This document shows positions 3,188-49,480 of a DNA stretch of 64,000 nt, piece by piece (positions within the stretch are counted from its first letter, which is position 1; each line of letters begins with the position of its first letter). Under the pieces are notes generated by a model that saw nothing but the letters and a program-made list of their open reading frames with translations, was not told where the DNA came from and searched no databases. A program made the position numbers and the translations under genes. The stretch is taken from the NCBI GenBank assembly GCA_951406725.2, contig OX597831.1:7626001-7690000 (forward strand), given 5' to 3'. Origin of the DNA: Octopus vulgaris. Taxonomy: Eukaryota.

Positions 3188-3397
3188 TTGATTTAGAGGG
3201 TAGTTAGCAGTTATTACCCTACGGAACATTTCCACCAACCACTGGAGATTTAAAATGACAAGGCTGCGTAAAATATTGTCGACTGCCGATAAACTGCCTC
3301 CGTAGTAGATAATGACACCAAGATCGTGGTAGAAATCCAACATTGTCTGCACTTCTTGTTCATCTTCAATTCCAATGTCTAAAGCCAAGTCTGCCAC
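3188..3397 (-). CDS. Coding exon 10: COR-A; the gene continues beyond the left edge of the window
   Basis: Acceptor tttcttccaagctcag, donor CAA|GTAAGT, 210 nt, phase 0. Reads VADLALDIGIEDEQEVQTMLDFYHDLGVIIYYGG...LRSLVILNLQWLVEMFRRVITANYPLNQ, with the COR motifs LxFYHDLGxII and VILxxQWL. Confidence 0.93.
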
Positions 3398-3984
3398 CTG
3401 AGCTTGGAAGAAACAATAACAACAGAACCAAAGAACTTTAATAAGCAATTTGTTTGTAACAATACACACGAATCTAGAGTGTCTAAAGTTCATAAAAAAA
3501 TATTCTAATTACTTTAATCAAAATGTATTGTTAAGAATAAAAATATAAACAGCTGCAATAATATTTCATAACTGAGAAACTGAATTTCACAGACTGAGAC
3601 GAGCATGTCTTTATTGTTATCTTTTAATGAGATAAAATTTGGAGAAAACTGTTTAGTTTTTTTCTGTGTTTACTGCAACAATATTGATGGTTTCAATATG
3701 ATGAATTGACAGAGTTGTAAGAATACCTTGTGGTATTTGTTGTGGATGTGTGCATTTTTGAGTGGACTGTAATTGAGGTCAACACTGAGGTTGATTTCTC
3801 TCTCCCTCTGGAAGGAAGGAATCAGCTGTGCACACAGGTATGGTCTGGAGAGGGATGGCCTTAATTGGATTTGATAAAAACCCAAGATACATTGAATATC
3901 CACTGAAAGATCCAATCCTTATTTTTGTTTTGGTGTGGTGCCCTTGAGTGTCCATGACCCTAAGAGTCATACCAGGCAGTGACG

Positions 3985-4057
3985 ACGACGACAACAACAT
4001 TGAAAAATACCTTAGGAACGATGAAGGCTGTGGAGGGTGTATCAGCCGAAATGTTGC

Positions 4058-4094
<37 letters not shown>

Positions 4095-4545
4095 GTTTAA
4101 CATCCTCTTTCCGTGCTAGCACAGGTTGGACAGTTCAACTGGGGTCTGGGAAGCCAGAAGGCTGCGCCAGGCCCAGTCTGATCTGGCAGTGTTTCTACAG
4201 CTGGATGCCCTTCATAATGCCAACCACTCCAAGAGTGTAGTGGGTGCTTTTGTACGTGCCACCAGCACAGGTGCCAGACGAGGCTGGCAAACAGCCACGA
4301 TCAGATGGTGCTTTTTACGTGCCACCAGCACGGAAGCTAGTCAGGGCAGCGCTGGCAACAGCCACGTTCGGATGGTTCTCTTACGTGCCACCGGCACTGG
4401 TATCACAGCTACAATTTCCATTGATGTTGATCGATTTCGATTTTGATTTTCGTGTTAACAACAAACAAGATGAGGGCAAATATTCATCAAATGTAAATAA
4501 TGTAAATAATGTACATAATTCCTCATCTCTTAAATATAGAACTGT
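3985..4545. mobile_element. Penelope-like terminal fragment with a nested RTE 3' end (about 4058-4450)
   Basis: The motif gatgaaggctg..gagggt.tatcagccgaaa.gttg|tgttaacaacaaacaagatgagg is split by the RTE tail. An uninterrupted copy lies in the opposite orientation at 56086-56240. Confidence 0.7.
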
Positions 4546-5564
4546 ATGAGTGAAAGACATATTGAGAGGGTTGTGGTTGAATAGTGTAGTGGAGAGATTA
4601 AATGGAGATTTAATCAGATTCCGAGGTAACATTACTGCCATGTTTATTAGAAGATAATCTGAAATGGAATATCTCATCTGGAGGACTGGATATTATTTCA
4701 TTTCAGGTTATCTTATCAACAGAAACGAGGGGAAAACCTGTGTTTACTTGCTTTGTAGAAACAGCAGCTAAATCTCACACAAATAAAAAAACCTTACTCT
4801 CTTGAAAAATAGAGAAGGACATGCAGGAAAAATGTAATCTATGTTAAAAGTTATAGTTGGAAAGATGAGATGGTCATGGCTAGAATGTCTTTCATTATAG
4901 ATGCGCATGTTAAATCAAAGATGACCCGGGGCTAAACAACAGCAACAAAAACAGAAGACCTTCATGTTTGTGTTTTGGTGGTGGTGGTGATTCCAAAACA
5001 CATCAGGCACAAACATGTTTTGAAGCAAAAGCTTTTATAATGTCATAGAAAAATAAAACAGAACAAGTACAAAACATGCAAAACTCATTGAGCTTTTGTC
5101 CTGTTCTGCCTTTTTGTCCTTAAATACATGAGAGGAACTGCAAGATTTGGAAATGAATGCAATGTGCATGATTCTCTGATTGTGGAACAGAAATCAATAA
5201 AGATTTTTCTTTCTTTCTTCTATTTTTTTTTCTTTTTTCGGGGAAACAACTGAACATGTCAAATCTTTTATATTAGACAAATGTTCTGCGTTACATGATA
5301 CGTGTACTGCTGGGCTGGGGTAAGTTGGTAAACCATTCCATTATGAGGACATTGCTGTAGGCATGTGTTCTCAATGAATGGCTTTTCTGATTAAGCAATA
5401 AATAATGCTTATCTCAGCAGAATTAAGTCACCGTTTCCAACTTGTACAATAAATATTAAACCACCGACAGCAGAAGAATTACTGCCACAACTGCACCAAG
5501 TCCATGAAGTCAGCCATTTCTCAATGGATTAACAAACTGGAGGGTAAAGATAATATATCGATGC

Positions 5565-5975
5565 AGGAATAGCCATGTGGTTGAGAAGCTGGTTTCTCGT
5601 GGTCTTGGGTTCAGTCCCACTGTGTGGCACCTTGGCCTCGGGTCAATCAAAGCCTTGTGAATGGATTTAGTGTATGGAAACTGAAAAGAAGCCCATCATA
5701 CGTGCATGTGCGTATGTGCATGTGTGTCTCTGTCTCTCTCCTTGTCTTGACATAGCATGATAGTTGTAAATGAGTGTCACTGTCATACAAGCAGTGTCGT
5801 TCATTTCCAATATTACAGGAAAACATGTCTGGCCATGGAGAAATATTACTTTGTTTGGAAATAGGTGGGGGTTGGTGACAGGAAGAGCATCCAGCCATAG
5901 ACAAATTTGCCTCAACAAACTGTATCCAATTCATGCAAGCATGGAAAAGTGTATATTAAAACAATGATGATGATG
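5565..5975 (+). mobile_element. Abundant tRNA-derived SINE, family B (representative copy)
   Basis: Motifs ggttcagtcccactg.gtggcaccttgg and gccttgtgagtggatttggtagacggaaactg. Other copies lie at about 7410, 14330, 19345, 22565, 24938, 37495, 40160, 41440, 46790, 50620, 52545 and 53180. Confidence 0.85.
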
Positions 5976-7022
5976 ATTACATTCAAAACTCACAAGTTCA
6001 AACCTTATCTCTGGTGATAATCAGGCTTCTTTCAGATTCAGTCAGCCTGGGGCTAGAGTAGAAGATGCTTGCCCCAGGGGCTGGGCAATGGAACTGAACT
6101 AAGAACCATGTGGTTGGGAAGCAAACATCTCAACCACACAGCCACATCTCTGCCTGTCTGATTTAATAAGGTGTTGGTGCCATGTAAAAAAAGCACCCAG
6201 TTCACCTTGTAAAGTGGTTGGTCTTAGGAAACCATACCGGAGCAGACAATCAGAGACTGGTGCAGCTCTTTGGCTTGCTCGCTCCTGTTAATTTGTCCAA
6301 ACCATGCCAGCATGGAAAACAGATTTTAAATGATGATGACGAATGTAGTCCTAGATAGACAGCAGCTGAGAAACAGATGGTCATGGTTGGACTGGCATTG
6401 ATCATAGCTTTGTTTGACCAGAGTTGGCCAGGAGTTCGACAACAACAACAAATACTTCTAATCATCAGCATCATCATCGTTTAGCATCTGCTTTCCATGC
6501 TAGCATGGGTTGGACGGTTCAACTGGGGTCTGGGAAGCCAGAAGGCTGCACCAGGCCCAGTCTGAACTGGCAATGTTTCTACGGCTGGATGCCCTTCCTA
6601 ACACCAACCACTCCATGAGTGTAGTGGGTGCTTTTTACATGCCACCTGCACAGGTGCCAGACGAGGCTGGCAAACAGCGAAACACGTAGAAAAATCTTGA
6701 CTAAGAGTAACATCCAACAGCTTGAAGAGAGCATGTGTATGCGAAGATATTTAGTAATTAGACTCTATTTATTGATAATATTTAAATTATCCGAGGAAAG
6801 ATTTGAATGAGAGAGTAACAAAAGTGACGATGTTATCAACACATCACAGGTAAACGAAGCTGACATTTACAGGATCTTTCATCCAATATCAATGGAAGAA
6901 GGATTCACTTTAAGATGCTCGAGAGACTTTGCATTTAATTCCTGATTTCCATAGAATAAGAGTGAAACAGAAGCAACATGTACCAAACACAGGTGAGATT
7001 TGGTAAGAAATAAAAGATCAAT

Positions 7023-7062
<40 letters not shown>

Positions 7063-7155
7063 TTCGGATTAATAACTGAAGTTTCTCCTTCGCTGAATGC
7101 TGTGATTTTGCATAATGAATTAAAGGTGCTAAGCATGTAGAACTTAATTACCTAC

Positions 7156-7299
7156 CTGGTCTATACTTGCATAATTATTAGAATTGTCAATTAGCTGATT
7201 AATTATGTCTTCAAACTGTAACCATCTTGTGGGGATCTTTTCTCCCATGTATGGTTCCTGAAGAGCCACTTTCTGGATATGTTCACGTAAGAGGCAAAT
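7156..7299 (-). CDS. Coding exon 9: ROC-COR junction
   Basis: Acceptor ttttttaaattttag, donor CAG|GTAGGT, 144 nt, phase 0. Reads ICLLREHIQKVALQEPYMGEKIPTRWLQFEDIINQLIDNSNNYASIDQ; YMGExIPxxWLxFE marks the COR start. Confidence 0.93.
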
Positions 7300-8228
7300 C
7301 TAAAATTTAAAAAATATTATAAATAATAATGAATACAGCCATCTTGATACACATATGTACTGTGGAGCTGTATTAGAGGAGGTGGTACGTCATGTTGCAG
7401 TTCATTTTGTAAGCATAGGGTTTTGAGTTCAGTCCCACTTCATGACACCTTGGGTAAGTGTCTTCTGCTTTAGCCCCAGGCTGATCACAAAGTTTGGTGA
7501 GGGGATTTGGCAAATGGAAACTGAAAGAAACCCTGTGTGTGTGAGAGGCAAGCATCTGTACAGTTTTTCTGTAGCAAATTCCACTCACAAAGCATTAGTC
7601 AACTGGAAGCTACAGGCAAAGGCACCACTCAGTAGTATAACTAGGTGTGATGGAGGGGAGAGGGTAACAGTCCACCCTGAGCAACACTTTTGGGGTCAGG
7701 TAAAGTGGGTGGGGAGAAGGCAGAGAGAGAGTAGCAGTGTCAAGGGCCACTGCAGGTGGCACACTCTAGAAACTGTACCATTCAGTGGGATCAAACGAAG
7801 AACCATAAGGATGTGAAATGTACCTCTGAACCCCATAGCTGTGCTTGCATGTGTACCCTAAGGGAAAGAAAATGGATGGCACAGCTTGAATCAGGGTAGG
7901 TCGGGTTAAATAATAGCAATAAATACATACATGCACAAACACACACATAATCTCACACACACAGGGACGCAAACACACATGGGAACACACACACATGGAC
8001 ACGGACACACACACACATACACATGCAGACACACAATGCACACATATGGATGCGGAACAGACACTCACAGACAGACAGACACACACACACACACACAGGG
8101 ATGCAGACACACAAACACACAGACACACAAACACACGGACACACATAAATAATCTATGGAATATATTAACACATGTATTCTCATTTTGAAAGCTTTTCCC
8201 TATGAATGTCTTCCTGAAGAGCTCATAC

Positions 8229-8348
8229 CTGTACATCCTCTTCATCCTCACTGCCATAGTTTTCAACAGCGAAGAATGGCTTTATTATATGTTTATAATA
8301 AGGTTTCCCAATTAGAAATTCCTCCAGGGCATTGAACTTCTCCTTCAC
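8229..8348 (-). CDS. Coding exon 8: ROC G5 region
   Basis: Acceptor gtattttgcag, donor CAG|GTATGA, 120 nt, phase 0. Reads VKEKFNALEEFLIGKPYYKHIIKPFFAVENYGSEDEEDVQ; FFAVEN is G5-like. Confidence 0.9.
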
Positions 8349-8688
8349 CTGCAAAATACAGCAAGATATTTTGAAAATAACAACAACAACAATTTCTTAC
8401 ATAAGTACAATGATTTGGCCACAAGAGCCAAAACACTGAGGACAGTACAAGGACCAATAAAGACACAGCAGTAGATTACATCAAGTAAAAGGACAAAATC
8501 TTCCAGTCTCCCACTCAGATTAAAAAGTGGAACATTATGTTGAACATTTATTGATGCTTACAGAAATACAGCCTCCTTACTTTATTGGATTATAAGCAAC
8601 CGCTAGTCTGAAGGCAGCACCTTTGCTGCTGTTTGCATTTAGCAACTAAGAGTTATCTAGGTCCAAGATCATCCACATCTTGGAATTT

Positions 8689-9120
8689 CAACCTTTAGCA
8701 TTCAGATTTTTTTGTCAAATGTATTCTTTTCTATTCTAGGCACAAAGCCTGAAATTTTGGGGGAAGGAGCCAGTCAATTAGATCAACTCCAGTATGCAAC
8801 TGGTACTTAATTTATCGACCCTGAAAGAATGAAAGGCAAAGTCAACCTTGGTGGAATTTGAACCCAGAATGTAAAGACAGACAAAATACTGCTAAGCATT
8901 TCGTCCAGCGTGCTAACTTTGTCAAATGTTTGCTTATTAATCGAGATTGTTTTGAATTAATCAAGCATTATTTTGTAGCTTCAACATTTCAATTAGTGAC
9001 TTTATATATTTTTAAAGTGGTACTGTAGGGTAGGTGTGAGAGGTTGGATGTGGTCAATTTTAACATAAAACAGGTAGAATATTTGGGTCAGATATGTCCG
9101 GATTAAATGCTAAAGGATTA
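8689..9120. mobile_element. piggyBac-type MITE with a nested family A SINE
   Basis: Body is homologous to 52644-52864. The SINE at about 8725-8918 is flanked by a ttgtcaaatgt duplication. Confidence 0.65.
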
Positions 9121-10180
9121 AACCTTTCCAAAACAACTCTACAACCACACCTTCTGGTCTTGGCCAATCCCAAAATACATGACTCCAAAGTCTTCAAAGT
9201 TGGGCATGAGTGTGTAGGCCCTGGAAATCTTGTTCTTGATGGCCTGAGGTGAGTGAGCAAAGGACTTTGCTTCTAAGCCAACACCAGGCCACATGCATTT
9301 AGATATATCCTACTCTGTATATAGCTGGGTGAACTGGAGCAATAACTGGTGAAATAAAGTATCTTGCTCAAGAATACAACACACAGCCTAGTCCAGGATT
9401 CGAACTCACTGCATCATGATTGTGAGCCCGATGCTCTAACTACTGAACCATGCATCTTCACTCAGCCGTAAAAATGAGTTACAGTGCTGTTGGTGCCCAG
9501 CTGTATCGGCCCCTTTGCCTTTCCCTTGGATAACATCAGTGGTGTGGAGAGGGGAGGTTGGTATGCATGGGCGACTGCTGGTCTTCTATAAACAACCTTG
9601 CCTGGACTTGTGCCTTTGAGGGTAACTTTCTAGGTGCAATCCCATGGTCATTCATGACCGAAGGAGGTCTTTACTCTGCATATAACCAGGTTGTTAGCTG
9701 GAAGAAAAGAAGTGAAAGCCTGCTCTTTCTGTTGTTTTAAGCTGATAGTACAAAGCTCCTCCCCTTAAACAAGACACCAGTCCATCTCACAATTAACCCC
9801 ACCAGATGTCACTGAGTTTCCCTTTTTTAAATTGGAGAATTGGAGCAACATAAAATGAAGTCTTCTACTCAAAGATGCATTTCCTTCTCTGAGAATCAAA
9901 CCCAAGTCCTATTAATGACTTGGCCATCCACCTTCACAGTTGATCAACACAAGCTATTAAAATATGGCCTTACTCACAAATACTGAAACAAGAATGAGGC
10001 AAACATGCATGGCATAGAACCGACATTCTATCCGCAGATGTTTCCATTTTATACTTATTTGGTATTTGTCAAAGCTTGGTGTTTTGAGTGTCACTCAAGT
10101 TGAGTGACAGTTTCCATCACTCTGATCTGATAAGAGACTCTTACAGAGTTGGGAAGTGATCCATTTTCTTAGACACAATA

Positions 10181-10735: not shown

Positions 10736-10776
10736 AAAATGAAAACATAAAACAACAAAATAAAAACTAAACTTAC

Positions 10777-10962
10777 CATCTGTTTCAGGATGTCTTGGTC
10801 ATCATCTAAGCTGTTTCGATGAGTGCCGACTATAAATATTGGTGGTGAGAGTGTGGAGTTTGTGATTGTGTTTTTTGTATTCTCTGCTGAATGAGCATGG
10901 ATAGACTTCATCCAATAATCTATGTAACCCAGATTGGACATGTTCTCAACAGTCTGGTCTTC
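10777..10962 (-). CDS. Coding exon 7: ROC G4 region
   Basis: Acceptor ttcttctcttcttgaag, donor ATG|GTAAGT, 186 nt, phase 0. Reads EDQTVENMSNLGYIDYWMKSIHAHSAENTKNTITNSTLSPPIFIVGTHRNSLDDDQDILKQM, with the Roco motifs YWxxSI and PPIFIVGTH. Confidence 0.93.
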
Positions 10963-11877: not shown

Positions 11878-13412
11878 TATGTTTGACTTTGTATTTGTAC
11901 AAGTTTACTCCAAGTCTCACCCAGAGACCTCAAGAGACAAGTTAGAAGTTGGTGTTATGCCTGGGGTGTCATATATTTGGTTTTACAAAGTATTGTTTTA
12001 GAGAATGTTTAAGAAAACCTAAAATTGTAAGTTTGTTTTAAAATTTGAGACTACAAAATATTTTACATAGGATATGGGCAGTTCCCATGAGCACTATCTT
12101 TTGAATTTCTGCCATTTTGGGGTTTCCTGATATCTAAGCTAGGTAAGAATCAGCCCCTTTTGCTATCATTCCTAGGGCACCTATGACGACAGGTATTGTT
12201 TTAGTCTTGAGGCTCTACATTTTACCAATCTCTATTTTAAGGTCTTTATACTTGCTCAGTTTTTGATAGGTCTTTACAGATACATTTATGTCAATTGGGA
12301 CAGTCATATCAATGAGGACGCATGATTTTCATCTGAAGTCCTCCAACACAATGTCTGTCCTATTCGCATCTATTTTTCTGTCAGTTTAAATGGTGAAGTT
12401 CCAGAGGAGTGAGATGTGGTCATTTTCAAGTACTAGAGATGATTTGTGTTACTACCAGTTTTTATCATGGGGCAGGTCCAAGTTTTTGAAAATTACCCAG
12501 TGAATATATTGTGCTGCTCTATCATGCCTGTTGAGATCTCTGTAGACACAAGAAGACTGCACATGGAGACAACATGATCAATGGTCTCATTTTGTTGTTT
12601 ACATACACTACATGTTGGGCTACTGCCGTTCTTTAATATATTGACCTGGTAGTTCCTTGCAGATAGACAGTGATCTTGGGCCGCTATGATAAACCCTTCT
12701 GTTTCTGATTTTAAGCCAGAAGACACTAACCATTGATGGGTAAGGGCTTTGTTGACATCAGCATTATTAGCTCTCTTTTGGGTATTTGGTATTGAGAAGT
12801 TTTTCTTGCTATTTATCGGTAAGAATATCTAAGGCAGCAGTTTTAGCACAGGTTTTCATATGCTTGGCTTTTCCTGTGTTTGTTTCTGGTATATCTAATT
12901 CTGGAATTTGTTGTATTTGAAATTCACTTAGATATTCTTTTGCCTGTTTTGTTACTGAGTATGATGCTTTCTTGTTTTCGTGCTTTAAGACAAGTTTTAA
13001 CATCCAGTCATCAGTGTTTTTCAGGTAGGTGTTTAGGCCAATTGTGGCAATCTTCATTGCAAATTCCAGTTGTTATAGTCCACTCTCTTTTTGTGGCAGG
13101 TAAAGTTGTTTTATATATCTGCCTTACGGTTGTGCAATCTCTGCATTGCCAACAATTTTCGTATTTTTCTGTCAAGATTACATATTTCAGTAATCGACCA
13201 GTTAATGATACTGAAACTGTAAGTCACGACCGGTATGGCTAAAGTATTGATCGCTTCGATCCTGTTTCTTGCATTCAGCTTTGTCTTGAGTTTTGTCCTT
13301 ACCCTGCGATAACATTTTCTTCTGATCCTTTCCCTCATCACTGAATGTTTGATTCCATCACCTTTAAATACTCCTACGTATTTGTAGCTCTCCGCTGGTT
13401 CTAACTCCTTTT
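11878..13412 (-). mobile_element. R4/Dong-clade non-LTR retrotransposon, decayed 3' portion (RT end, CCHC knuckle, restriction-like endonuclease)
   Basis: Translates YKYVG..., INTLAIPVVTYSFSIINW, LKSETEGFIIAAQD, CSVCKQQNETIDHVVSMC and IDMTVP...KLSKYKDL...IPVVIGALG across frameshifts and stops. Flanked by (TAA)n on both sides. Confidence 0.85.
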
Positions 13413-15325
13413 TATTATTATTATTATTATCATCATCATCATTATTATTAAATGGTGGTGGTGGTGGTGGTGGTGGTGGTGGTAGTGGTAGTAGCAGCAG
13501 TTGTAACACTGTCATATGACAAAAAAACTGGGTCTTTGGATTTGCTTGCACTACCTTCGTGCCAGTTCCACTTATTACCATTTCTAGTTCTGCAGTGAAC
13601 TCGTTTATCTTGAGAGAGCAAAAGAGAATTTTATTGTCTTTATAATTGGATTGAATATCAAGAGATTATTGCAAACAAGAGATATCAACTATCTTAACCG
13701 AACAGCTGTAATTTATGTAGAAATGGAGAAAAGGAAAAAGCTTACGTAAGTAAGATTGTGACATATAATAGAGATGTGGAAAAACTGATTGCTTATAGTC
13801 AACCATAGGAGAAAAAAAAAAATACAAAAATATTTAAATAAGAAATGGAAAATATACAGAGATTGCAAAGTTGGAATAAGAGTCCTCAAGAAGCAAGAAT
13901 ATGGCAAGGAAGCATGGAGCTAAGCACAGAGAAATGGTTTAGAAAAAGGAAAAACGAAACACAGAAAAAGAATTTTTTTAAAAATAGTAATTGGTAAGAA
14001 ATCTTTGCTTAGAGGCTGAAGGTTAATGGTAAAGGAGAATCAAAGGTCTTCAGGAAAAGCCAAAAAGTAACTGAAAAGAAAAAACAGGAATTTTATTTTA
14101 AAGAAAAAAATAAAGTTAAATGTCATCAGAAACTGAAGATTGTATAAAGAAGTGAACACACATTGACAGTGTGTCGAATGGCTATAAAGGCAGAAGGGTC
14201 GTTTAGGGTTATAGAAATGTGGCAAAGTTCATGAATGGGAATCAATCTTTATGTCAGAAGGAGAACGGTCGTTCTAATTTACATAACAATTTACAGGACA
14301 TGGCAGGGTAAATTGATTAATTAGGGACAGGAATGGCTGTGTGGTTGAGAAGCTGACTTTCCAAACACATGGTTATGGGTTCAGTCCCACTGTATGGGAT
14401 CCTGGACCATGTCTACAACTATGGCCCCAGCCTGACCAAAGAATTATGAGTGGATTTGGTAGACAGAAACTGTAAGAAGCCTACTGTGTGTGTGTATGTG
14501 TGTGTTCATGTATACAGTGTGTGTGTATATATGTCAGTGTGAGTGCTTGTGTGTGTGTTTGTGTCTTGACATTGTGTGATAGCTGCTGTAAATGAGGGCC
14601 ACTGTCATACAAGCAGTGATATTTCTTTCCAATATTCTGTGAAAACATGTCTGATTAATATGGGGAAATATTTGTTTAGAAACATATGAGGGTTAGTGAC
14701 AGGAAAGGCATCTGACCACAGAAAATCTGTCTCATGCAAGCATAGTAAAGATGACATTAAAACGATGATGATGATGATGATGATGATGACAATGATAACG
14801 ATGAGTAAATGGCATATTACAGAGGTTTTTTTTGTTTCACAACAGAGGTTTTTTGTTGTTTCTTTGTTTCACAGAGGCCTTTTGTTTTTATTTTGTTTCA
14901 GAGTTTTTTTTTTGGTTCACAAAGGTTTTTTGTTTTTGTTTCGGTTAATTTGAAATGTGAAGTAAATCTTTATTAAAGAATCTAACCTCACAGTATGGTT
15001 AAATTCCAAATTTTCTAAAAAGTTTACCTTATGTTTAAAACTTTGGTCAAAAAAATTCCTTTCCTCAAAGTCAAAGAGTCTTTGCTGAAGCATCAGATTT
15101 TTCCTCTGCTTCCTGGCAGACAAATTTATCCAAACTATTGAACTTTCTGCATAATTGTTGCCGACACAGTCCTCCAACGCCCTCCTTCACACTGGTTTCC
15201 TTAGATTGCATTTTTTATATTGTATCTTTAAATATAAACCAATGTAACTTAATCATAATTAATGCTAAATTAATCAGAGCACCACTCCTTCAGATGATGT
15301 TGATAGTGTTGCTGCTGTTGTTGTT

Positions 15326-19549: not shown

Positions 19550-19648
19550 GAGGTTGCTGTCATTTGTAAATTTGGTGATGGGAGACGTAGAAAGGTCATC
19601 GCAAATGTTGAAAACAATAATGTAAACAGCTCGTGAAGATAAAAACAC
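19550..19648 (-). CDS. Coding exon 6: ROC strand after switch II
   Basis: Acceptor gtttcctttcag, donor GTAAGT, 99 nt, phase 0. Reads VFLSSRAVYIIVFNICDDLSTSPITKFTNDSNL, matching the Roco pattern xFLSxRAxYxxVFx. Confidence 0.93.
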
Positions 19649-21255: not shown

Positions 21256-21540
21256 CTGATGTGTGGTATAATAGACAGCCTGACCAGCAAAGTCCCAAAT
21301 ATCCAAAGTTACTTCTTGTTGAGGAATCTCCATGCTGCTTTCAAATGTTTTCTCACATTGGTTCTCAGCAAGCCATTTTTCCGGAGACTGAAGTTCTAGC
21401 ATTGCTTGTAATTTCTCTATGGCATCGGCCTGTATACCTTTCAGTAACTGCTGTGGCACTTGTGTGACGGCACCAGGAGACACTTTACTACCAGTGCTAC
21501 ACCCTAGCATGGTGCTGTATGATCGGTTTTCTTTTTCTGT
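21256..21540 (-). CDS. Coding exon 5: end of the insert and ROC G3 (WDFAGQ)
   Basis: Acceptor tttttatttccccacag, donor CAG|GTAGGA, 285 nt, phase 0 to 0. Reads TEKENRSYSTMLG...EVTLDIWDFAGQAVYYTTHQ, the Roco G3 signature WDFAGQxxYYxTHQ. Confidence 0.95.
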
Positions 21541-25654: not shown

Positions 25655-25782
25655 TTTTTTGTCGTTTTTCTGGAAGTTGTTCTTGTTTTTGAGCTCTTTT
25701 TCCTTTTGATGAAGAACCATTTCTAGATAGACATTTAAGGCCGAGGAATCTGTGAATTCCTCTTCCAAGGCAGCTACACCGC
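25655..25782 (-). CDS. Coding exon 4: charged helical insert within ROC
   Basis: Acceptor ctcctctgcttctctcag, donor GTAAGT, 128 nt, phase 1 to 0. Reads GGVAALEEEFTDSSALNVYLEMVLHQKEKELKNKNNFQKNDKK. It is needed to bridge the phases of exons 3 and 5. Confidence 0.85.
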
Positions 25783-29912: not shown

Positions 29913-30067
29913 CAATAATATCTCTGGGAGCATCTGTTTTTTGGTGTTGTTCTTTGTCGACATTTTCACCATTAAGGTTTAGCCTCCAAGCTTTTGAATC
30001 AGATGTATTGAAAGAGCAAGACTCAGACAAATCCACACCATCCGTACTTTCCAGGGGTTGGTCATCT
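29913..30067 (-). CDS. Coding exon 3: ROC switch I (G2) and start of the insert
   Basis: Acceptor tttttatttacag, donor GTAAAT, 155 nt, phase 2 to 1. Reads KDDQPLESTDGVDLSESCSFNTSDSKAWRLNLNGENVDKEQHQKTDAPRDII. STDGVD is the Roco G2 motif. Confidence 0.9.
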
Positions 30068-36957: not shown

Positions 36958-37484
36958 GTAGATTAATAAAACAGGGTAAGTAAATTAAAGGTAGATTAAT
37001 AAAACAGGGTAAGTAAATTAAAGGTAGATTAATGAAACAGGGAAGTAAATTAAGGTAGATTAATAAAATAAGGTAAGTTAATTAAAGGTAGATTAATAAA
37101 ATGGGGTAAGTAAATTAAGGTAGATTAATAAAACAAGGTAAGTTAATTAAAGGTAGATTAATAAAACAGGGAAGTAAATTAAGGTAGATTAATAAAACAA
37201 GGAAAGTTAATTAAGGTAGATTAATAAAACAAGGTAAGTTAAGGTAGATTAATAAAACAAGGTAAGTAAATTAAGGTAGATTAATAAAACAAGGAAAGTT
37301 AATTAAGGTAGATTAATAAAACAGGGAAGTAAATTAAGGTAGATTAATAAAACAAGGAAAGTTAATTAAGGTAGATTAATAAAACAAAGTAAATTAAGGT
37401 AGATTAATAAAACAAGGAAAGTTAATTAAGGTAGATTAATAAAACAAAGTAAATTAAGGTAGATTAATAAAACAAGGTAAGTAA
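36958..37484. repeat. AT-rich minisatellite, about 17 units of 27-33 bp (ggtagattaataaaacaaggtaagttaattaa)
   Basis: Directly visible. A 60-bp higher-order dimer occurs near 37371-37480. Confidence 0.96.
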
Positions 37485-39553
37485 ATAGTTTTATCTTGTA
37501 TCTTTCATTTGTTTCAGTCATTGGGCTGTGGCCATGCTGGGGCAGCCCCTCAAAAGGCTTAGTGAAACAAATCAACCCCAGCCTTTATTTTTCAAACTCT
37601 GATACTTATTTTATTAGTTTCTTTTGTTGAACCAGAGTTATGGGAATGTAAACAAACTAACATCGTTGTCAAGTGATGGTAGAAGGACAAACACAAACAT
37701 ACATTCAAATACATATATATACAACAAGCTTCCACACAGTTTCTGTCTACCAAATTCACGAGGTATTGGTCAGCCTAAGTCTATAGTGGAAGACACTTAT
37801 CCAAAATGCCATGCAGTGGAACTGAACCTAAACGACATCGTTGCAAAGTGAACGTGTAACATAGTGTTTTTTTGTTTTTTTTTAATGTGAAAGAGATTAG
37901 ACCCTACCTGGTTGGTGGGGGGAGGGGAATGGCATGGTCAAAGACAGAATGGTTTTCATCAGAGGATTGCTTGATCAGGGCTGACACCAAAGAGGTTTAA
38001 CAACAACAACTTAGAACAACGTAGAGGAACAAACCAAATATTTCAAATCACTCAACTGTTTCTGCCAAATTATCACCTTTCTCTCGTTAATATTGATTTC
38101 TTACTTTCAGAACAAGGCCATAAATTTAGCAGCAAAGGAAGAGACAAAATTTTATGACATTCATGCTCTCCCTCAGACCATTATTGGTTTAAGTGCAGTG
38201 AAATAGTTATGTCTAGAACCAGAGGTCATAAATGGTTCTTTTATTAAGACTGATTGCTTTTTTTTTACTTTCTTTCTTTTTTTGCTTTGTTTTGTTTATT
38301 TTGGACAAGGCACAAAGCCAATTTTAAATAGGAATTGGTATAGTTCTCTGAGAGGTATAGCTTGAGAGATGGTTTACCACGAACAAGCCTAATGTTTTTA
38401 CGATTATTATTAATAAGAGAAAATTAAGTAACAAATTTAGAAGAAGAAATTATCTCTTTCCCACTTTCCAAGGTGAACTGGTTTTATTCCTTCCCATTTG
38501 TCCATATTTGTTTGATTCTTAATAGCATATAATTTCACTGTTTTCCCCTTTGTTTTTGTAGATAATGTCTGACAGGTGGCAACTGGTAAAAGAGACAACA
38601 AAACAAAAAAGAAAAGAAAATGGCCCCTATTTGTTAGGCTGAAGTCTAGTGCCTGACCTTTCAAGTAGCTATTATCACAGACACAATGAAGGCATTAATC
38701 TTTTCATTTCTCTTTAAATGTAATTATAGAAAATTAGTTAATTAGCCATCTTGTCGTATCCATTATGAAGATTGGATTATTAAAAGTTCAACATCTGCAG
38801 TATTTTTGTTGTATTACAGGGGCGAGTTAATATTGAAAAGCCAAATCGATCAGAGCTATGAAGAAGATAAGAAGGTAAATGGGGTAAAACCAGATCAAAT
38901 GTTGAAGGAATTAAGAGATTAAACTAGACTGTCTTATGTATATATCTAAAGAAGAATCACCAATGTTTCTACGAGCACAATGGAGAAAAAAAATCAATGA
39001 GAAAATCAATCAAAAGTTTTGTCATGTAGCACAGCCTTTACAGACATGGCTATTCTTCTTGTTAAGTGTTTCCTTAATGAATATCTAAATGTGTTTCCAG
39101 GTATTTAATTAGAGGCAAATAAAACCTATTAATATATTTCAGTGAAATCAAACAATCAGAAAACTATGTAAATACAATTAGGACTCTGTCTGGGAGTGCA
39201 CAGAAGTGAGTCTGTTTTTAAGTGTGAATATGCAAATAGCAGAAACGCAAGTGTGCAGCGTTCCTTTCTTAAGACCAATGTAACAAGTGACACAAGTTTA
39301 ACAAAGTGGAAAACAACGAATCACAAGACATTACAAGATTAATTGTTGATTTCTGTTGACAGCTTTCAAAAATGGCTATACAGAGTCAAATCAACCCTGC
39401 TATATTACAGGTACTTATTTTATTAATTAGAATGACTGAAAAGCCCAGAAAGAAAAAGAGAAAGAGATTTCAACTCAGATCTGCAGAAAAATGAAACTAA
39501 TTATGATGCTTTTAGTCTACCATACTACATTGTCTACTACCTTATTAGTATAC

Positions 39554-40717: not shown

Positions 40718-41163
40718 TAATCAAAGCTCTTTAAGTCACTATCTTATATTTGTGAGAGCCTACCGTATATGTATTTAGTATGTAGAATGCTCTCCTTTTG
40801 CTCAGCTGTTTCCACAACCACAGGACTACAAAGCCAAACTTCCTAATTGTACAACCCTGAGTAAGTATACTCTCTCTCATATGATGACACAAACACAGTC
40901 AATTTATTCTGTAGAGCACCATAAATTTCCTCAGTTGAACTTGTCATTGGCTTTTGGTTTTGGTTCTGATTATGAATTGCTTTTGGTTACATATGTGTGC
41001 AACAGCCCACTTTACACCCAACCCTTTCTGATTAGGGCATCCATCATCAGATAAATACCTTCCTTGGTCATGAAGGGACATGACACCTAGCATAGGATCT
41101 AACAAATCTAAGGGAAGCTTTACAGGTGAAATATTATAAGAAGAAAAAAATCTGAACTCTTAC

Positions 41164-41326
41164 TTTTGTCCCAGAAGTGAACGCTTGAGACTAGTTTTAC
41201 CAACTCTGTCTTTACCGACCAACATAAGCCGTGTACGATAGACAGCCTCACTTCCTGAACAGCAGGCCTTCTCATAGGCTTTGATAGCAGCCTCCCCTCG
41301 GACAAAGATTTCCTTAGGAGTATCAT
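41164..41326 (-). CDS. Coding exon 2: pre-ROC helix and ROC G1 P-loop
   Basis: Acceptor ttatattttag, donor GTAAGA, 163 nt, phase 1 to 2. Reads DDTPKEIFVRGEAAIKAYEKACCSGSEAVYRTRLMLVGKDRVGKTSLKRSLLGQ. GxxxxGKTS P-loop at 41190-41216. This frame is not shown in the ORF track. Confidence 0.93.
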
Positions 41327-42244
41327 CTAAAATATAATCATAGAAACAAAAATTAGAAGATTACAGAAATCTCAGTCAAAACAGTTGTACAAAACATACC
41401 CAGCAACACAAAAACCACCACTGCTACCATTTCCAAATCGCAGTGATTCAGAAGATTGCTTTCCAACCGTGTGGCTTCCAGTTCAGTTCCACTTTTTGGC
41501 ACCTTGGGCATATGTCTTCTACTATAGCCCCAGATCAATCAATGCTTTGTGAGTGAATTTGGCAGACAGAAAGTATGTGAAAGCCTATTATACGTGTGTG
41601 TGTGTGTGGAGGGGTCTTTGTGTTTGTCTTACTACCACATGACAACTGGTGTTGGTTTGTTTATATCCCAATGACTCAGCAGTTTAACAGGAACCCAACA
41701 GAATAAGTACCAGATTCCAAAAATAAGTACTGAAATTGATTTGTTCAATGAAACCCTTAAAGGCAGTGCTCCAGGATGGCCAGTCTAATGACTGAAACAA
41801 GTAAAAGATAAAAGAATAAAAGGGCCTGGTACTTAATTCTGGTCTTCAATAATATTTAGTAGATGAGAGATGAACAACCTCCTGAAGAGCAACATGGTCT
41901 GTTGTAACTAGTTTTTTCCTATCAGAAGGAATTAAACATAACATGTCAAAGCAACAAAATACACATCAATTTCAAAGTTCTTTGCCAACAGCAATGAAAC
42001 ATATCATTCATTGCACTGCTATACTCATGGTCATTGACAGTTAAGTATGTCTCCCTATGTCACAATGCAATATTAAAACGACAAACACTGAAATCAGATC
42101 CTTCCAAAGAAATATTTCTTTGTCCATTTTAGTATTGGTTTAACCGTCACCAGTTGAATACTACTTTCTCTTCACCTATTCTGAACTTCTGTAATAATTT
42201 CTTGATGTAAATCCCTCAGTCATATCCTATACATTTCTCCTACT

Positions 42245-42551
42245 GTTGTTGTTTGTTCCTTCTCGAGCCATACCTGGCTCATAAGGGCCAGTTTCCAGGT
42301 TTCCTTGGCGTATAGGTTCCACACCTGGACGGGACGCCAGTCCGTCGCAAGTGAGCTGCAAGATGCAGGAGGAAAGAGTGAGAGAAAGTTGTGGCGAAAG
42401 AGTCAGCAGAAGTTCGCCATTACCTTCTGCCAGAGCCACATGGAGCTTAGATGTTTTCGCTCATAAACACACACATCACCCGGTCTGAGATTCGAACTTG
42501 CGATCCCTCAACCGTGAGTCTGCTGCTCTAACCACTAGGCCATGTGCCTAC
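42245..42551 (-). mobile_element. tRNA-derived SINE (H1-type head and core, tail T3 with a V-SINE-like motif)
   Basis: Shared core gagtgagagaaagttgtggcgaaagag on the plus strand. The 3' part contains gcgacggactggcgtcccgtccagg. (CAA)n tail. Confidence 0.75.
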
Positions 42552-43202: not shown

Positions 43203-43425
43203 TGTTTCTTTATTGCCCACAAGGGGCTAAACATAGAGGGGACAAACAAGGACAGACAAAGAGATTAAGTCGAATACATCGACCCCAATGCGTAACTGGT
43301 ACTTAATTTATCGACCCCGAAAGGATGAAAGGCAAAGTTGACCTCGGCGGAATTTGAACTCAGAACGTAACGGCAGACGAAATATGGCTACGCATTTCGC
43401 CCGGCGTGCTAACGTTTCTGCCAGT
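43203..43425 (-). mobile_element. Family A SINE
   Basis: Homologous to 31250-31489 and flanked by a ggctgaaat duplication. A further copy at about 47166-47395 is nested in another SINE with a ttcctaacc duplication. Confidence 0.85.
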
Positions 43426-45899
43426 GGCTGAAATGCTTTTGACTGTAATCTGCTCAATCAAGGCAGGTCTGGAGATTAAACAAATATGGACAAGTGGACA
43501 GTAAATGATGATGATGATGATGGTGATATATATCTGGAGAGAGAGAAACACACACAGACAGACGTTTGTTTTCATTAACTACGGATAATATTTTCTAAAC
43601 CTGTGATAACATAATCTCAATATGTTGTACATACAGTAGTGTGAAACGACTATCAGGCTGGCAACCAGATCAGCAGCTGTACAAAATAAATACATTGGCA
43701 TCAGCAGTGGCTGCGGCAAGGCCATCACCATCATCATCATCACCATCATCACCATCATCATCACCATCATCACCATCATCATCACCATCATCACCATCAT
43801 CATCACCATCATCACCATCATCATCCTCATCATCCTTCTATGATAAAGGCAAGTTCTTCACTGAGCCAAGAGAAGGTTCTCCTCTTGTTACTCTCTTTCA
43901 CCAGCCTTCAACACTAATCTATTTCAGTGTTTCCTACTTTTTGCCATTTTTGTCACTATTTCACACCAGACCAGTCTAGATCAGGCAGGTCTATGATCAA
44001 AGATATTATCATTGCAATTTCACATAATATGGAAGACTATATTATCAGATGTGCCTTCCTTTACTTTCCCCTTTTTTTTCTCAAGTGTGATTTGGCTGCT
44101 ATTTCTAGCATGCTGAGTGACTACATAAAGACTCTATCATTTAGCTTGATTTGGTAAAAAGATGAGAGGCCAGTATTTATTACTCTGGACTTTTTATCAG
44201 GGTAATCCTTTGTTAATGGTAAACAAAATATTAACGATCTAACCTCTATAATTAATAAGACCAAAATTTTAAAATTTTTGGTTTTACAAACTTTACTGAC
44301 AATTATGCTTGTAAATCAAATCGATGATAAATTAGATTTTTAGAACATCCAGGTGAAAAACAAGTAATTTCTTGAAAAGAATATTTAGATTAACTTGAGC
44401 AATTAAATTTTAAAGAAAATAAATTAAACTAAGAGGCAATATTAAAATTATTTGTTTTTTCATAATTGCTTTGCTAAAGACACACAGATTATTTTATCGT
44501 TTAACAATTCACCGGAAGTTGCAGGTTAAAAAAAAAAAAAGAATTTAAATTATTAGTTTTATTGAAAACAAATTTTCAAAGAAGAGATTGGATTAAAGAA
44601 CTGATTTCATCATAATGAATTAATGATTAATTAAGCAATGATGTTAACCTGTTGAGTCACTGGGATATCACGAACAATTTGTTCATTAAAGTTTATCTAA
44701 AGCAAAACAGCTGGCGGAACCCAGCATTTCCACCAAGCTTTACTCATAGCAACATTTGAGCAATACTTTAAAAAAATATAGGAAATAATTAACAAATTAA
44801 CGAAATCATATTAGCGCAAACTTAAGGAAACAGTTGCAACACTGACTGCCATCATTGTTATCCTCACCACCACTAATATTGAAGTTGAGGGAACTCCTTT
44901 TCTAGAAGAATAATTCTAATACAATCTGCTAGAAGTAAGAGCTAAATCTCTCTCAAATCACATCCTATTGTCTTTAACATCTTTAAAGAAGGAAAAACAT
45001 TGGAAAATGTAGTCGAAAATATGGCATATCTGCAAATTGGAAAACAAGATGGCTATAAACTAGAATGCCTTGAATAACAGGTCTGCACCATAAAGACTGA
45101 CCCAGGCTAAACACAAACAACAACCCCTTGCTTGTCAACCAGCCACTTCTCCACCCTACCACCGCCACTGCTCTCATCACCAGTTTTATGCCTATTTACA
45201 AATCTAGCTGGATAAATCTACCCTTAATAGCATCTCTTCTCCACTTATCTTCATTCTGTGTAATCTCTTTGCTGGGCAGACAACCTACCAATATACAGCA
45301 TCATATAGGGAGAGTTTACGCAAAAAACAAAAGACAAAGACAGGTGGTGTACAAAACAAACAGATGTATTAGTATAACACTCAGGAATAGAAAAAGTCCT
45401 TTACATTTCGAGCCGACGCTCTTCTACAGAAAGAGACACAGAAAAAAAAAACAAGGGGAGAAAAAAATGTGTGTAGTGGCTAACGATCTATCATACAAAC
45501 ATCACTCCATGCCTAGCTCTCTCTACATCATCTGCTTATTCTGTCCACGGGTCACTGAGATACAGCCTCATACATGGTGCACAGGCTTAATCCTGTAATG
45601 CCTAAATTATCAATATACAGATAAAAACAAATTATTTGTTGGTGTTTTGCAATTTATTTAAGGGTATGGAGTATGATTGATGTAAAACATTGAATTTTAT
45701 TTCAGATGTACATATATAAATTCTTCAACTGGTGAATAATTTCATACCAACACTGACCAAATATTACAATTGTTTGCATGCAATAATGTTGTTCAACTGC
45801 AAATAATTATTACAAACTATCAATTTTGTTGTTTTCTTCCAATAAGAGTATACTACTTGAAGCAGCAAAAATTAACAATATGCATTTTAAGATTAATAA

Positions 45900-46278
45900 C
45901 TAGACCCGTTGAGGCAAGTGAAATCGAAATCGGTCAAAAATCAATGGAAATTGCAGTTGTGATACCAGTGCCAGTGGCACGTTAAAGAACCCTCCGAACG
46001 TGGCCGTTGCCAGCGCCACCTCGACTGGCCTCCATGCCAGTGGCACGTAAAAAGCACAAACCGATTGTGGCCGTTGCTAGCCCCGCCTGGGCACCTGTGC
46101 TGATGGCATGTAAAAACACCCACTACACTTATGGAGTGGTTGGCGTTAGGAAGGGCATCCAGCTGTAGAAACACTGCCAGATCAGACTGGGTCTGGTGCA
46201 GCCTCCTGGTTTCCCAGACCCCAGTCGAACTGTCCAACCCATGCTAGCATGGAAAGTGGACGTTAAACAATGATGATG
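45900..46278 (+). mobile_element. RTE LINE 3' UTR fragment
   Basis: Reverse complement of the 10181-10545 segment, with a (GAT)n tail. Confidence 0.85.
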
Positions 46279-46494
46279 GCATTCACAGAGGAAAACATTT
46301 GGTTTCAAACAGAGACAAATAGTTCCAGCAATTTTCCCTGCTTCAGTTATATTCGCATTGCTTGCTCTTCCGGCTCCTAATTACAAAATATGTCACCCAG
46401 ATATCAGAGATTAATGTCAAGACACAGTGATATGAAAAATTCACGTCAGTATTAAATGCTTGCAGTGATGTGAAGTCTGCAAAAATACTTACTG

Positions 46495-46750
46495 GGTGGT
46501 GGTGATGATGATGATGGTGGTGGTGGTGGTGGTGATGGTGGTGGTGACAGTGGTAGCAGTGGTGGTAGCGAAGGTGGTGGTGGCGGTGGCAGTGATGGTG
46601 GTGGCAGTGATGGTGGTGGTGGTAGCGAAGGTGGTGGTGGCAGTGGCAGTGATGGTGGTGGTAGTGACGGTGGTAATGATGGTGATGGTGGTGGTGGTGG
46701 TAGTGATGGTGGTAGCAGTGATGGTGGTAGCAGTGATGGTGGTGGTGGTA
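46495..46750. repeat. (GGT/GAT/GCA)n cryptic trinucleotide repeat
   Basis: Directly visible. A similar (CAT/CAC)n tract lies at 43723-43835. Confidence 0.95.
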
Positions 46751-49011
46751 TTTAATCCCAAGATGCACTTAAGTAAACCTAACTTTAACCATTTACTTTT
46801 TACCTGTTTTAGTCCTGGACTGTGGCCATGCTGGCGCACCATCTAGAAGGGTTTAGCTGAACAAATTGTTCCTCAGCACTTTTTGTTTAAAATTTGGCAT
46901 TTATTCTACTGGTCTTCTTTGTTGGACTGCTAAATTAAGGGGACATAAACAAACCAACACCAGTTGTCAAGGGATGGTAGTGGAACAAACATAGACACAA
47001 AGATACATATGTACATATATATGACAGGCTTCCACACAGTTTCCATTTAACAAATTCACTCGCAAGGCATTGGTCACCCTAGGGCTATATAAAAGATATT
47101 TGCTCAAAGTGCCACACAATGGGACTGAACTCCAAGCTATGTGCTTGCAAAGACACTTCCTAACCTATTTCTTTACTGCCCACAAGGGGCTACACACAGA
47201 GGGGACAAACAAGGACAGACAAACGGATCAAGTTGATTATATCAACCCCAGTGCGTAACTGGTACTTAATTTATCGACCCCCAAAAAGATGAAAGGCATA
47301 GTCGACCTCGGCGGAATTTGAACTCAGAACGTAACGGCAGACGAAATACGGCTACGCATTTCGCCCGGTGTGCTAACGTTTCTGCCAGCTTGCCACTTTT
47401 CCTAACCACAAAGCCATACCTGTGCCTGACTTTCATTATAGGAGGCCTTCTAAATGTAACGAGGGTCCATAATTAATGCAGAGTTATTCAGTCGTTTCTG
47501 TATGGATGCAAAGTGATGAAAACGGAATTTTATGAAGATTCCATTTTGGGGAATGAAAGCATTTCAATTCCTTCATTTCGGTCAGTTCTATCTCCTGTAA
47601 TCATTGCATGTCTTAATGTTGGATATGCACAGAGTCCTAAACTAGATTTGAACTCGTAACCTTTGTTTATAAGCTCAGAGATACAATGTTCCTATCCACT
47701 GGACGTAGTGGACAGTGTTTTTATCCAAGTTGATGTTCCTAATTTGGAACTGAGTGCACATGTGCAGTGAAAGCGTGTGCTTAGTGCTAAGATGTTGAGC
47801 TCATGATCAGAAGGTTGTCGGTTCTATTCTTGCACTAAGCAACATTTCATGTCTTTGAGTAAGGTACTTCATTTTAAAGTACTCAGTAAAAAATGAGTAC
47901 CAATGAAGTGCTGGGATAGTCCTGGGACAAGGGTGGGAGAACTGTGACAGTGCCTATGTCTGTTCACATTGGCATAGATACATGAAACAAGAAGTGAAAA
48001 CATGATACACACTTCTACTAAGTGATGAATCCTCTGAGTAATGGCCAAAGCAATTAGTACACATCCAGGAGTAAGACACCTGAAGAGACAGGTGGAGACT
48101 GATTAAAATCTAGACTGAAAAATTGTTCATCTATAAAGATGAAGCAAATAATCTGAAAAAATTATAGAGGTTATTAAAAAGAGAGCATCTCAAGCATTTT
48201 GACATTTAAAGAAAACTTTCTGTATTTACCAGAATCTAAGACATGCATGAGATGCACCCCTATCTTTTCAAGAATATTTTGTGGAAAAAACAAATTTAGT
48301 AAGTTTTATAATACACACTTATTGAAAGATATTTTAAATTGGTTTTTCAGAGAAAATGTGTGATTCTGTGAATGTAAGTAAAATGTGACAATATACTGGA
48401 ATAAAATATGAAACCATGAATTTATCAGAAATACACTACGTTACAGGAGCACCATATTTCAACTTTGTCTTTTTTTCAGTTCAACTGTATGGTTGTTTAT
48501 GTTTTGGTCGAGAGAATTGCCATACAAGATGTAAAACTCTTATTTTTGGCTGTGATGTTTTGTGTAGCTATTATTGGCCATCAGGGGTGGCACATCCCCA
48601 CTACTATGACTTTGTTGTCATCCACCCACTGCAAATAGCCGACAAGCACATGGGAGTTTGGTAACATTTCTTTCATCTTTCTAAGGAAATTTTTCATTAA
48701 GATAATTAAAGAAATATTTCTTAAAGGCAAAAACCAGTCATTAAATAATGAAAGATATATATCAGGTATGGATTATGTATGCTGGGCAAGAAGGTATAAC
48801 GAGATGATGTGACTTACCTACATAACATCCAGCATACTGTAAACAATTTTTTGTTAGTTTGAGTTAACATTTTATGGTAATTTGGCTTGTTAACAATATT
48901 TTATCAGTTCTTCTGATACATTCAAAATAAAATTTTAAAAACCACACATTTTATAGGCCAATAAATATAGCAAATTTGTATTTGTGCAATCAGAAAATGA
49001 AAGTTAATTAC

Positions 49012-49480
49012 CTGTAATAACCAATTTGACAGCTGATGTATTTCCATAGAGGTCAAGCAGGAACCACAATTGGAGGTGTGTTGGAATTCCATTCAGCAGA
49101 ACACCAATGTAGTGATTGTTGACAAACAGTTGAAGCTCTCCCATGGAATTCACATAAAATGTTATGATGTGATAAGAAACAGCAAACTTTTCGTTCACTA
49201 AACGTGCCCAGTATCCTTCCTGTTTAACCAGATCAGGATAAAGGTAACGTGGTAATGTGTGCTGTTCAAGGAAACACTGTGGGTCATTGGATGTAACTCC
49301 TATTCGTAAGGCCCCTTTCCAAGTCGTAATGCAAGTCATCTGGAGAGAGATCCGAACACCAATTTTCAGAGGTTGGTCACCAAATACAATACCATCACAG
49401 AAGTGCTTTTCATCTCGGTTAGCGTGTAGCCGATTGTTGGACAAAGTGACAGCTGACCCATGCACATGATGAAATCGCAT
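49012..49480 (-). CDS. Coding exon 1 of the NHR-ROC-COR (Roco) gene: Neuralized homology repeat (NHR/NEUZ) domain
   Basis: ATG at 49480 in context gaccATGc. Translates MRFHHVHGSAVTLSNNRLHANRDEKHFCDGIVFGDQPL...WKGALRIGVTSNDP...LPRYLYPDL...YWAR...LWFLLDLYGNTSAVKL, matching the NHR hallmarks FHxxHG, FCxGIVF, WxGALRxGxTxxDP, LPxYxxPDL and LWxxxDxYG. Donor G|GTAATT at 49011, phase 1. A likely acceptor tttattgtag at 49585-49586 would add 5' UTR 49481-49584. Confidence 0.93.

Follow-up and report, generated by a model that had tools for sequence, protein, structure and literature searches.

Does the octopus genome encode a single protein in which a Neuralized-type NHR domain is joined directly to the ROC-COR core of the Roco GTPases, and if so, what does the remainder of that protein do? 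The question is raised by a 64,000-nucleotide stretch of the Octopus vulgaris genome (GenBank assembly GCA_951406725.2, contig OX597831.1, positions 7,626,001 to 7,690,000), here called the window. An initial annotation, made from the letters of the window, proposed that a run of minus-strand exons belongs to a little-studied invertebrate class of Roco protein with NHR immediately upstream of ROC-COR, and the domain order and orthologs described below bear this out. The locus is an intact 21-exon octopus gene whose product has the architecture NHR-ROC-COR-Death-TIR and ends in a CaaL tail.

Gene structure and the NHR-ROC splice

The G1 to G4 motifs of the GTPase domain lie on the minus strand of the window, each in separate exons or short open frames. 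Using tblastn with proteins of relatives, we placed ten exons (Table 1), which when joined give 1959 nucleotides, or 653 codons, without a stop. All nine internal acceptors are AG and all ten donors are GT, and these boundaries confirm the ten phase-consistent exons and the 653-codon frame originally proposed.

The junction between the NHR exon and exon 2 decides whether the two domains share a transcript. It was sought in Logan contigs, for which RNA status is the tool's guess and no run is recorded as RNA. Over window positions 41100-41500, the contigs of runs X1 and X4, which come from two studies, have coverage confined to exon 2, and their overhanging letters correspond to the last part of the NHR exon (window positions 49014-49043) and the first part of exon 3 (30038-30067). 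A 7.7-kb intron joined at GT-AG in this manner is as expected of a spliced transcript. The junction was seen in two of four runs; contigs of run X15 continue into the intron on either side of exon 2, as genomic DNA would, and run X9 had no aligned contig and is uninformative. The joining of position 49012 to 41326, on which the initial annotation had staked the fusion, is therefore present in contigs of two studies. For the junctions beyond exons 1-2-3, support comes from splice signals, the reading frame, and an alignment to the RefSeq model P0206 that has no gaps (1267/1267). The X1 contig has 667 letters ahead of exon 2, about 198 of them beyond the coding part of exon 1 (window 49481-49700), so that a 5' untranslated stretch exists; four codons before the ATG there is a TGA in frame.

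The length of the first intron, together with the absence of NHR from some database models, could be taken to mean that the NHR exon comes from another transcript or that the gene is a decaying chimera. This explanation is refuted by the spliced junction in two studies, by the occurrence of the fusion across many phyla, and by the open 1267-codon frame, and we consider its probability close to nil.

Eleven further exons lie to the left of the window (G000:C18:7624277 to 7587284) and encode the rest of COR, the Death domain, the TIR domain, and the C-terminal residues. Assembly of this neighbouring region, as the initial annotation had advised, yields Death-TIR and the CaaL tail as the effector. 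In all, 21 coding exons are spread over 88.2 kb, and the 1267-amino-acid product ends in CGLCNVL-stop. It aligns to the Octopus sinensis model P0206 without gaps at 99.7% identity (four differences). In P0001, which is 96% identical, Pfam identifies Neuralized (3-154), Roc, COR-A (555-715), Death (958-1026), and TIR_2 (1036-1146). All five families were found in each of the five proteins scanned, so that the Neuralized, Roc, and COR domains first recognized from the letters are joined by Death and TIR_2; in these same five full-length proteins, Pfam detected no LRR, ankyrin, or kinase domain flanking ROC-COR at E up to 0.05, in contrast to the LRRK1, LRRK2, DAPK1, and MFHAS1 subfamilies.

The database models differ in places. 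P0001 lacks exon 6 (window 19550-19648) and has its exon 7 extended into the intron, and P0207 is missing 48 residues at exon 9 (window 7156-7299) and has a different C-terminus without the CaaL end. These deviations are likely to be model errors or isoforms.

In the octopus genome, for which all copy counts are lower bounds, the NHR family occurs in at least 17 places on four contigs, one of which is this gene. From their sequences and repeat count we read the remaining places as neuralized, NEURL2, and a multi-repeat NEURL4-like locus. COR-A matches include at least this gene and one other place, and a TIR query of related type returned only this gene among its matches. The NHR-Roco gene looks single-copy. 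The second COR-A match (G000:C10:44439401-44439898) lies inside a 1068-codon open frame, a putative second Roco gene.

Table 1. Exons of the NHR-Roco gene that fall in the window, with the domains they encode (residues in brackets).
Exon	Window positions	Strand	Content	Basis or remark
1	49012..49480	-	Start ATG and entire NHR, Neuralized NHR1-type (1-157); phase 1 end	Pfam PF07177 E 8.4e-35; PDB 2YUE/4KG0 E 7.1e-32; junction with exon 2 in contigs
2	41164..41326	-	Roco hinge helix; G1 P-loop GKDRVGKTS (194-202)	Helix aligns to pre-Roc helix of PDB 4WNR, 3DPU, 6HLU; spliced at both ends in contigs
3	29913..30067	-	G2 STDGVD (218-223); beginning of long switch-I insert	Junction with exon 2 in contigs
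4	25655..25782	-	Helical portion of G2-G3 insert	tblastn, splice signals, frame; long helix in ortholog model
5	21256..21540	-	Remainder of G2-G3 insert; G3 WDFAGQ (387-392)	
6	19550..19648	-	ROC strand FLSSRAVYIIVFN	Missing from model P0001, present in P0002 and P0206
7	10777..10962	-	G4 region VGTHRN (478-483)	Asn where LRRK2 has Asp
8	8229..8348	-	End of ROC, FFAVEN (520-525)	Putative G5 position
9	7156..7299	-	ROC-COR linker; beginning of COR-A	
10	3188..3397	-	COR-A	Profile E 4.3e-6

A catalogued family of bilaterian invertebrates

Searches across taxa for NHR, Roc, and COR in one protein, also advised at the outset, listed all five Pfam families for 45 of 65 matches in one search and 44 of 110 in another. 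Orthologs are present in cephalopods, a chiton, gastropods, bivalves, annelids, nemerteans, and rotifers, as well as in spiders, a tick, a centipede, all sampled echinoderm groups, hemichordates, and amphioxus, and the protein is thus conserved among bilaterian invertebrates. Relatives represented by short Logan contigs (P0003-P0005) have the fusion as well. Among named matches, none from a vertebrate, fly, nematode, or cnidarian carried the five domains together, a weak negative with about 8000 candidates scored per search.

A quick ROC-COR tree was built from 61 proteins chosen by hand from 205; it is rooted at the midpoint, includes no LRRK, DAPK, or MFHAS1 rows, and has two long outgroup branches that meet. 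In this tree 27 family rows stand on one side of a branch with SH-aLRT 99, deuterostome and protostome rows are roughly apart, molluscs are together, and the order roughly follows species groups. Such slow evolution along the species tree suggests that the protein would watch a conserved protein of the host and not a pathogen pattern that varies. Next to the family rows stand shuffled Rocos, from echinoderms where named. Among the 39 close relatives scanned, the modules include ankyrin, kinase, NACHT, CARD-fn3, DED-Macro, TAZ/KIX, HEPN, and Bcl-2, and ROC-COR cores in the wider set also carry caspase, CARD, DED, RIG-I-type, GT4, or trypsin modules. The octopus gene is the stable member of a highly shuffled, immune-flavoured clade. 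Two proteins of Amphiura filiformis (P0230 and P0235) show further combinations: NHR-ROC-COR with a kinase, and CARD with RIG-I-type helicase domains, ROC-COR, and Death.

The initial annotation had raised the possibility that this architecture is new. It is not: both the gene and its domains have already been published and entered in databases. NHR-ROC-COR-Death-TIR is tabulated for centipede and oyster in Table S10 of PMC5094078, with the same domains in the same order, and the centipede protein T1IR33 is P0067, which falls inside the 27-row branch together with the octopus protein. The octopus gene is an ortholog of these proteins and differs in nothing of kind. An immunome of Aplysia classes a ROCO-bearing gene as MyD88-like (PMC9334734), and a figure legend in that paper names NHR among the domains of TIR+COR proteins; we infer that the NHR belongs to this MyD88-like ROCO locus. 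As far as their available portions go, both listings give domains only; the CaaL tail, the NHR1 origin, and the invariant TIR glutamate are added here. The cnidarian 'Novel Gene 3' (Nematostella A7RN39; PMC5094078), compared by its description, has the same Roc-COR-Death-TIR chassis. However, it carries a kinase and SH3 where the octopus protein has NHR. The available text of PMC8195603 contains nothing on this fusion, and the account of ecTIR-DC proteins in the corresponding part of PMC6321704 does not describe this architecture; the original ecTIR-DC classification may already number the family, and the TIR atlas tables of bioRxiv 2026.04.30.722052 may place its TIR. In the literature searched, which lay outside subscription papers, we found no functional study of the family. 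An Atlas search returned only Roc clusters, below 0.9.

The proposed switch: NHR and the GTPase core

What might such a protein do? We favour, with a probability of roughly 40%, a prenylated, membrane-bound, GTP-gated Death-TIR switch in which NHR serves as a peptide sensor and the TIR domain is predicted to cleave NAD+. The C-terminal CNVL would be geranylgeranylated and hold the protein on a membrane. The NHR1-type domain would then bind a short motif like the NxxN that Neuralized recognizes in Delta, carried by an adaptor or a membrane protein. Binding would alter the nucleotide and monomer-dimer cycle of ROC-COR, allowing the Death domains to nucleate an assembly that brings TIR domains together. 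Finally, the TIR domains would hydrolyse NAD+, with linear ADP-ribose a likelier product than a cyclic one, and the outcome would feed immune or cell-death signalling. The caspase, CARD, DED, NACHT, HEPN, Bcl-2, and RIG-I-type modules attached to related ROC-COR cores provide a context that we count in favour of this proposal.

The NHR domain matches NHR1 of Drosophila Neuralized in the Protein Data Bank (PDB) with E 1.2e-47, compared with E 2.7e-11 for a NEURL4 repeat, and Neuralized NHR1 was the best of three octopus references for all 39 NHRs. The domain shares the fold of Neuralized and NEURL4 (root-mean-square deviation, or rmsd, 1.1 A to 4KG0 over 155 columns). In addition, its exon and the NHR1 exon of octopus neuralized, whose donor is predicted, both end in a phase-1 GT at the equivalent codon. 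This common exon end supports shared descent of the NHR exon, with the octopus gene probably the recipient of a copy. Neuralized NHR1 binds the NxxN motif of Delta (PMC5675594). In contrast to Neuralized, the octopus protein has a single NHR stretch and no RING by Pfam, so it is not an E3 ligase by itself.

The NHR1-type domain and the common exon end would also suit a regulator of development or trafficking. In this reading a Neuralized-type binder without a RING, located on endomembranes, would compete for motifs of the Delta/Serrate or Bearded type and steer the recycling of these proteins, with Death-TIR playing a secondary part. LRRK2, together with NEURL4 and HERC2, controls recycling of Delta-like 1 (PMC4565672), and a tree that roughly follows species groups is as expected for a conserved cell-biology gene. 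However, NHR is less conserved than TIR (mean column conservation 0.57 vs 0.77), and seven family records that lack NHR by Pfam retain Roc, COR-A, Death, and TIR (P0039, P0042, P0043, P0051-P0054), some of them partial or short isoform models. Moreover, flies, nematodes, and vertebrates use Notch ligands, yet no named five-domain match was found there, although this blank is weak. We regard a primarily trafficking role as unlikely.

The initial annotation noted a short helix between NHR and ROC. It aligns with the pre-Roc helix of Rocos from bacteria and archaea, among them 6HLU, an LRR-Roc-COR structure, and corresponds to the Roco hinge that precedes Roc in Chlorobium tepidum LRR-Roc-COR; NHR therefore occupies the position of LRR in that protein. 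The proposal that NHR replaces LRR holds in this positional sense. In any other sense it does not, since no LRR occurs in the 39 close relatives scanned. NHR and G1 are separated by 39-43 residues in all 40 orthologs, a constancy that could also mean that NHR faces inward. NHR would then act as a fused version of the NEURL4-LRRK2 contact, clamping the nucleotide state of ROC or recruiting a ubiquitin ligase rather than sensing a ligand. NEURL4 NHR3-4 does bind the ROC of LRRK2, in a manner dependent on ROC mutations (PMC4565672). However, the only NEURL4 repeat available in the PDB is a far more distant match to the octopus NHR than Neuralized NHR1 is, and the spacing is also explained by the hinge helix common to Rocos, so that an inward-facing NHR appears improbable. 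A complex prediction of NHR with its own ROC-COR (P0002 8-165 and 172-935) scored 0.00 twice, with the alignment unused and the controls unfolded, and counts neither way.

ROC is followed directly by COR, as judged from Pfam Roc and COR-A and from profile and fold matches to LRRK1/2 and the C. tepidum Roco. G1, G2, and G3 are intact in the octopus gene, and in 40 aligned orthologs the G1 lysine and the G1 threonine or serine are present in 40/40, the G2 threonine in 38/40, the G3 aspartate in 39/40, and the G3 glycine in 40/40. An ortholog model (predicted template-modelling score 0.64) has fold matches to LRRK1, the C. tepidum Roco, and LRRK2. The tandem is shared, in sequence and fold and with its pre-Roc hinge helix, with LRRK1, LRRK2, the C. 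tepidum Roco, and Methanosarcina barkeri Roco2. In contrast to the LRRK and prokaryotic proteins, the octopus protein has no LRR, kinase, or WD40, has mostly asparagine at G4 in its family, and carries a Death-TIR-CaaL output. G2 and G3 are separated by 139-222 residues in the family, modelled as a long helix and disorder, compared with about 23 in 4WNR. COR-B contains Cys882, Cys884, His903, and Cys910 in all 40 orthologs (P0002 numbering; exons 15-16, G000:C18:7613371-7604614), and this CxC...H...C cluster is a possible zinc site.

The core had been described as a dimerising GTPase switch. ROC-COR and G1-G3 are as claimed, while the dimerising part needs care: a bacterial Roco forms dimers when it is nucleotide-free or GDP-bound and is monomeric when GTP-bound (PMC5714945). 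Either state may therefore be the 'on' state of the octopus ROC-COR. The exchange of aspartate for asparagine at G4 brings to mind a natural xanthine-nucleotide switch, an idea that comes from engineered GTPases. We set it aside because the G4 column varies.

Death-TIR as the proposed output, and the CaaL tail

The tail supports a membrane location. The octopus protein ends in CNVL, CxxL is found in 50 of 58 family proteins, and CxxCxx[LI] in 45 of 58. The eight without CxxL comprise seven that are truncated or have a different end and one that ends in CIII. The conserved tail follows a poorly conserved linker (0.20). Geranylgeranyltransferase I (GGTase-I) targets proteins ending in CaaL/I/M (PMC11152559), and the octopus C-terminus is of this type.

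TIR is the most conserved domain of the protein. A glutamate stands at the catalytic position in 66 of 66 family sequences and aligns to the glutamate of the AbTir motif WTNYE, which is the catalytic E208 (bioRxiv 2022.05.07.491051). The octopus TIR shares this residue with SARM1 and AbTir, and NAD+ activity is predicted on that ground. Cat1, bacterial TIRs, and SARM1 are among the profile matches, and the 60 of 71 matches listed contain no TIR from MyD88 or a TLR; Pfam scores TIR_2 at 84 bits vs 18 bits for TIR. In contrast to SARM1 and the bacterial TIR NADases, the protein does not have the WxxxE tryptophan, and neither ARM nor SAM was detected; oligomerisation would come from Death and ROC-COR.

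The same domains can also be read as a non-enzymatic membrane adaptor of the MyD88 kind. Sensing and GTP gating would be as above, but Death-TIR would only recruit partners, such as IRAK-type kinases, TLR TIRs, or a p75NTR/UNC5-type death-domain partner, leading to NF-kB, JNK, or apoptosis. Death followed by TIR is the order of MyD88, the Aplysia ROCO gene was classed accordingly, and the Death domain has its best PDB matches in NRADD/p75NTR (E 1.2e-11 to 9e-9) and then in the MyD88 Death domain (3e-6). The missing tryptophan would also suit a scaffold. However, the glutamate is kept not only throughout the family but also in 63 of 64 TIRs of a sister family described below, while to our knowledge the MyD88 TIR has none at that position, and the profile matches listed contain no TIR of MyD88 or TLR origin. 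We judge an adaptor without enzymatic activity to be somewhat less likely than the enzymatic switch.

Several observations weigh against the enzymatic switch that we prefer. Identity of the NHRs to Neuralized NHR1 is only 33-51%, and the two other references in the test of NHR type were partial or had an insertion. The G4 column is degenerate, with asparagine in 25, aspartate in 10, and other residues in 5 of 40 orthologs (asparagine in octopus; register fixed against VGTHLD of LRRK2). The P-loop is altered to GPPDGKKT in the spiders P0058 and P0212 and to GQDQ[IV]EKTS in the freshwater mussels P0022 and P0049, with other domains kept, so that GTP gating is not universal in the family; the changes suggest independent drift to pseudo-GTPases. 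TLR TIRs can carry the same glutamate without strong activity. The E-values of the octopus TIR against NADases are weak (1e-4 to 1e-6), and a fold search with the Death-TIR model does not separate enzyme from scaffold, since MyD88 (Z 15.8, rmsd 2.7, 129 aligned) ties with SARM1 (Z 15.7, rmsd 2.6, 128 aligned), and both rank below Hydra TRR-2 (Z 17.1). The WxxxE tryptophan column contains His 21, Leu 21, Asn 6, and Ser 5 of 66, with leucine in octopus. In AbTir both cyclisation and some of the activity are linked to this tryptophan (bioRxiv 2022.05.07.491051), and its loss would lower the case for a cyclase but not for a hydrolase. Animal TIRs are mostly seen as scaffolds, with SARM1 the one treated as an established NADase (bioRxiv 2026.04.30.722052, 2026.05.20.726525). 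A clam transcript named 'neuralized pats1', a putative ortholog, was down 758.9-fold in parasite nodules (PMC4769524) and is counted with the context in favour of the switch; against this, the change concerns one assembled isoform and is downward.

The initial annotation anticipated coupling to innate-immune or ubiquitin signalling. Death-TIR and the CaaL tail point to the former, or to cell death, more than to ubiquitin transfer, for which no RING was detected. With an invariant catalytic glutamate in both bilaterian branches, the family is a candidate for a second animal TIR NADase; were its TIR only a scaffold, it would likely provide an alternative to MyD88 in molluscs, echinoderms, and amphioxus. 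In either case, Roco biology gains a kinase-free animal model with input (NHR) and output (TIR) on one chain, one that is relevant to signal transmission by the ROC-COR cycle of LRRK2. A more far-reaching and rather unlikely scenario is that the bilaterian ancestor possessed a second SARM1-like NAD-cleaving executioner, assembled from a copy of the Neuralized NHR1 exon, a prenylated Death-TIR tail, and a Roco GTPase. At the membrane, a GTP cycle like that of LRRK2 would have sensed whether an NxxN protein, for example a Notch ligand, is engaged or lost, and the response would have been NAD+ breakdown. The system would have been retained in most invertebrate phyla, with apparent losses in vertebrates, flies, and nematodes.

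The sister family (P0089-P0144, for example Lottia P0095 and Tubulanus P0104) has a long N-terminus without Pfam match followed by Death-TIR-TIR, and often ends in a basic CaaX such as KSKSCVIL. Its two TIRs carry the glutamate in 31/32 and 32/32, with asparagine in place of the tryptophan. We considered this X-Death-TIR-TIR-CaaX protein as an obligate partner and rejected it for the octopus genome, where no member was found: a search with one sister-family protein gave only the two TIR exons of the present gene among 16 candidates, a lower bound. Elsewhere in the octopus genome, G000:C3:22891945-23160760 contains a cluster of seven TIR genes, each a single open frame of about 690-710 codons, which probably form an array of TLRs.

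Of the other content of the window, no tRNA genes were found, and 12 other open frames yielded 11 without Pfam match and one zf-RVT match below the cut-off. The latter marks a decayed LINE-like piece in an intron (window 12496-13665, minus strand). Another intron carries a 530-bp tandem array with periods of 32, 60, and 155 bp (window 36958-37486), surrounded by many microsatellites.

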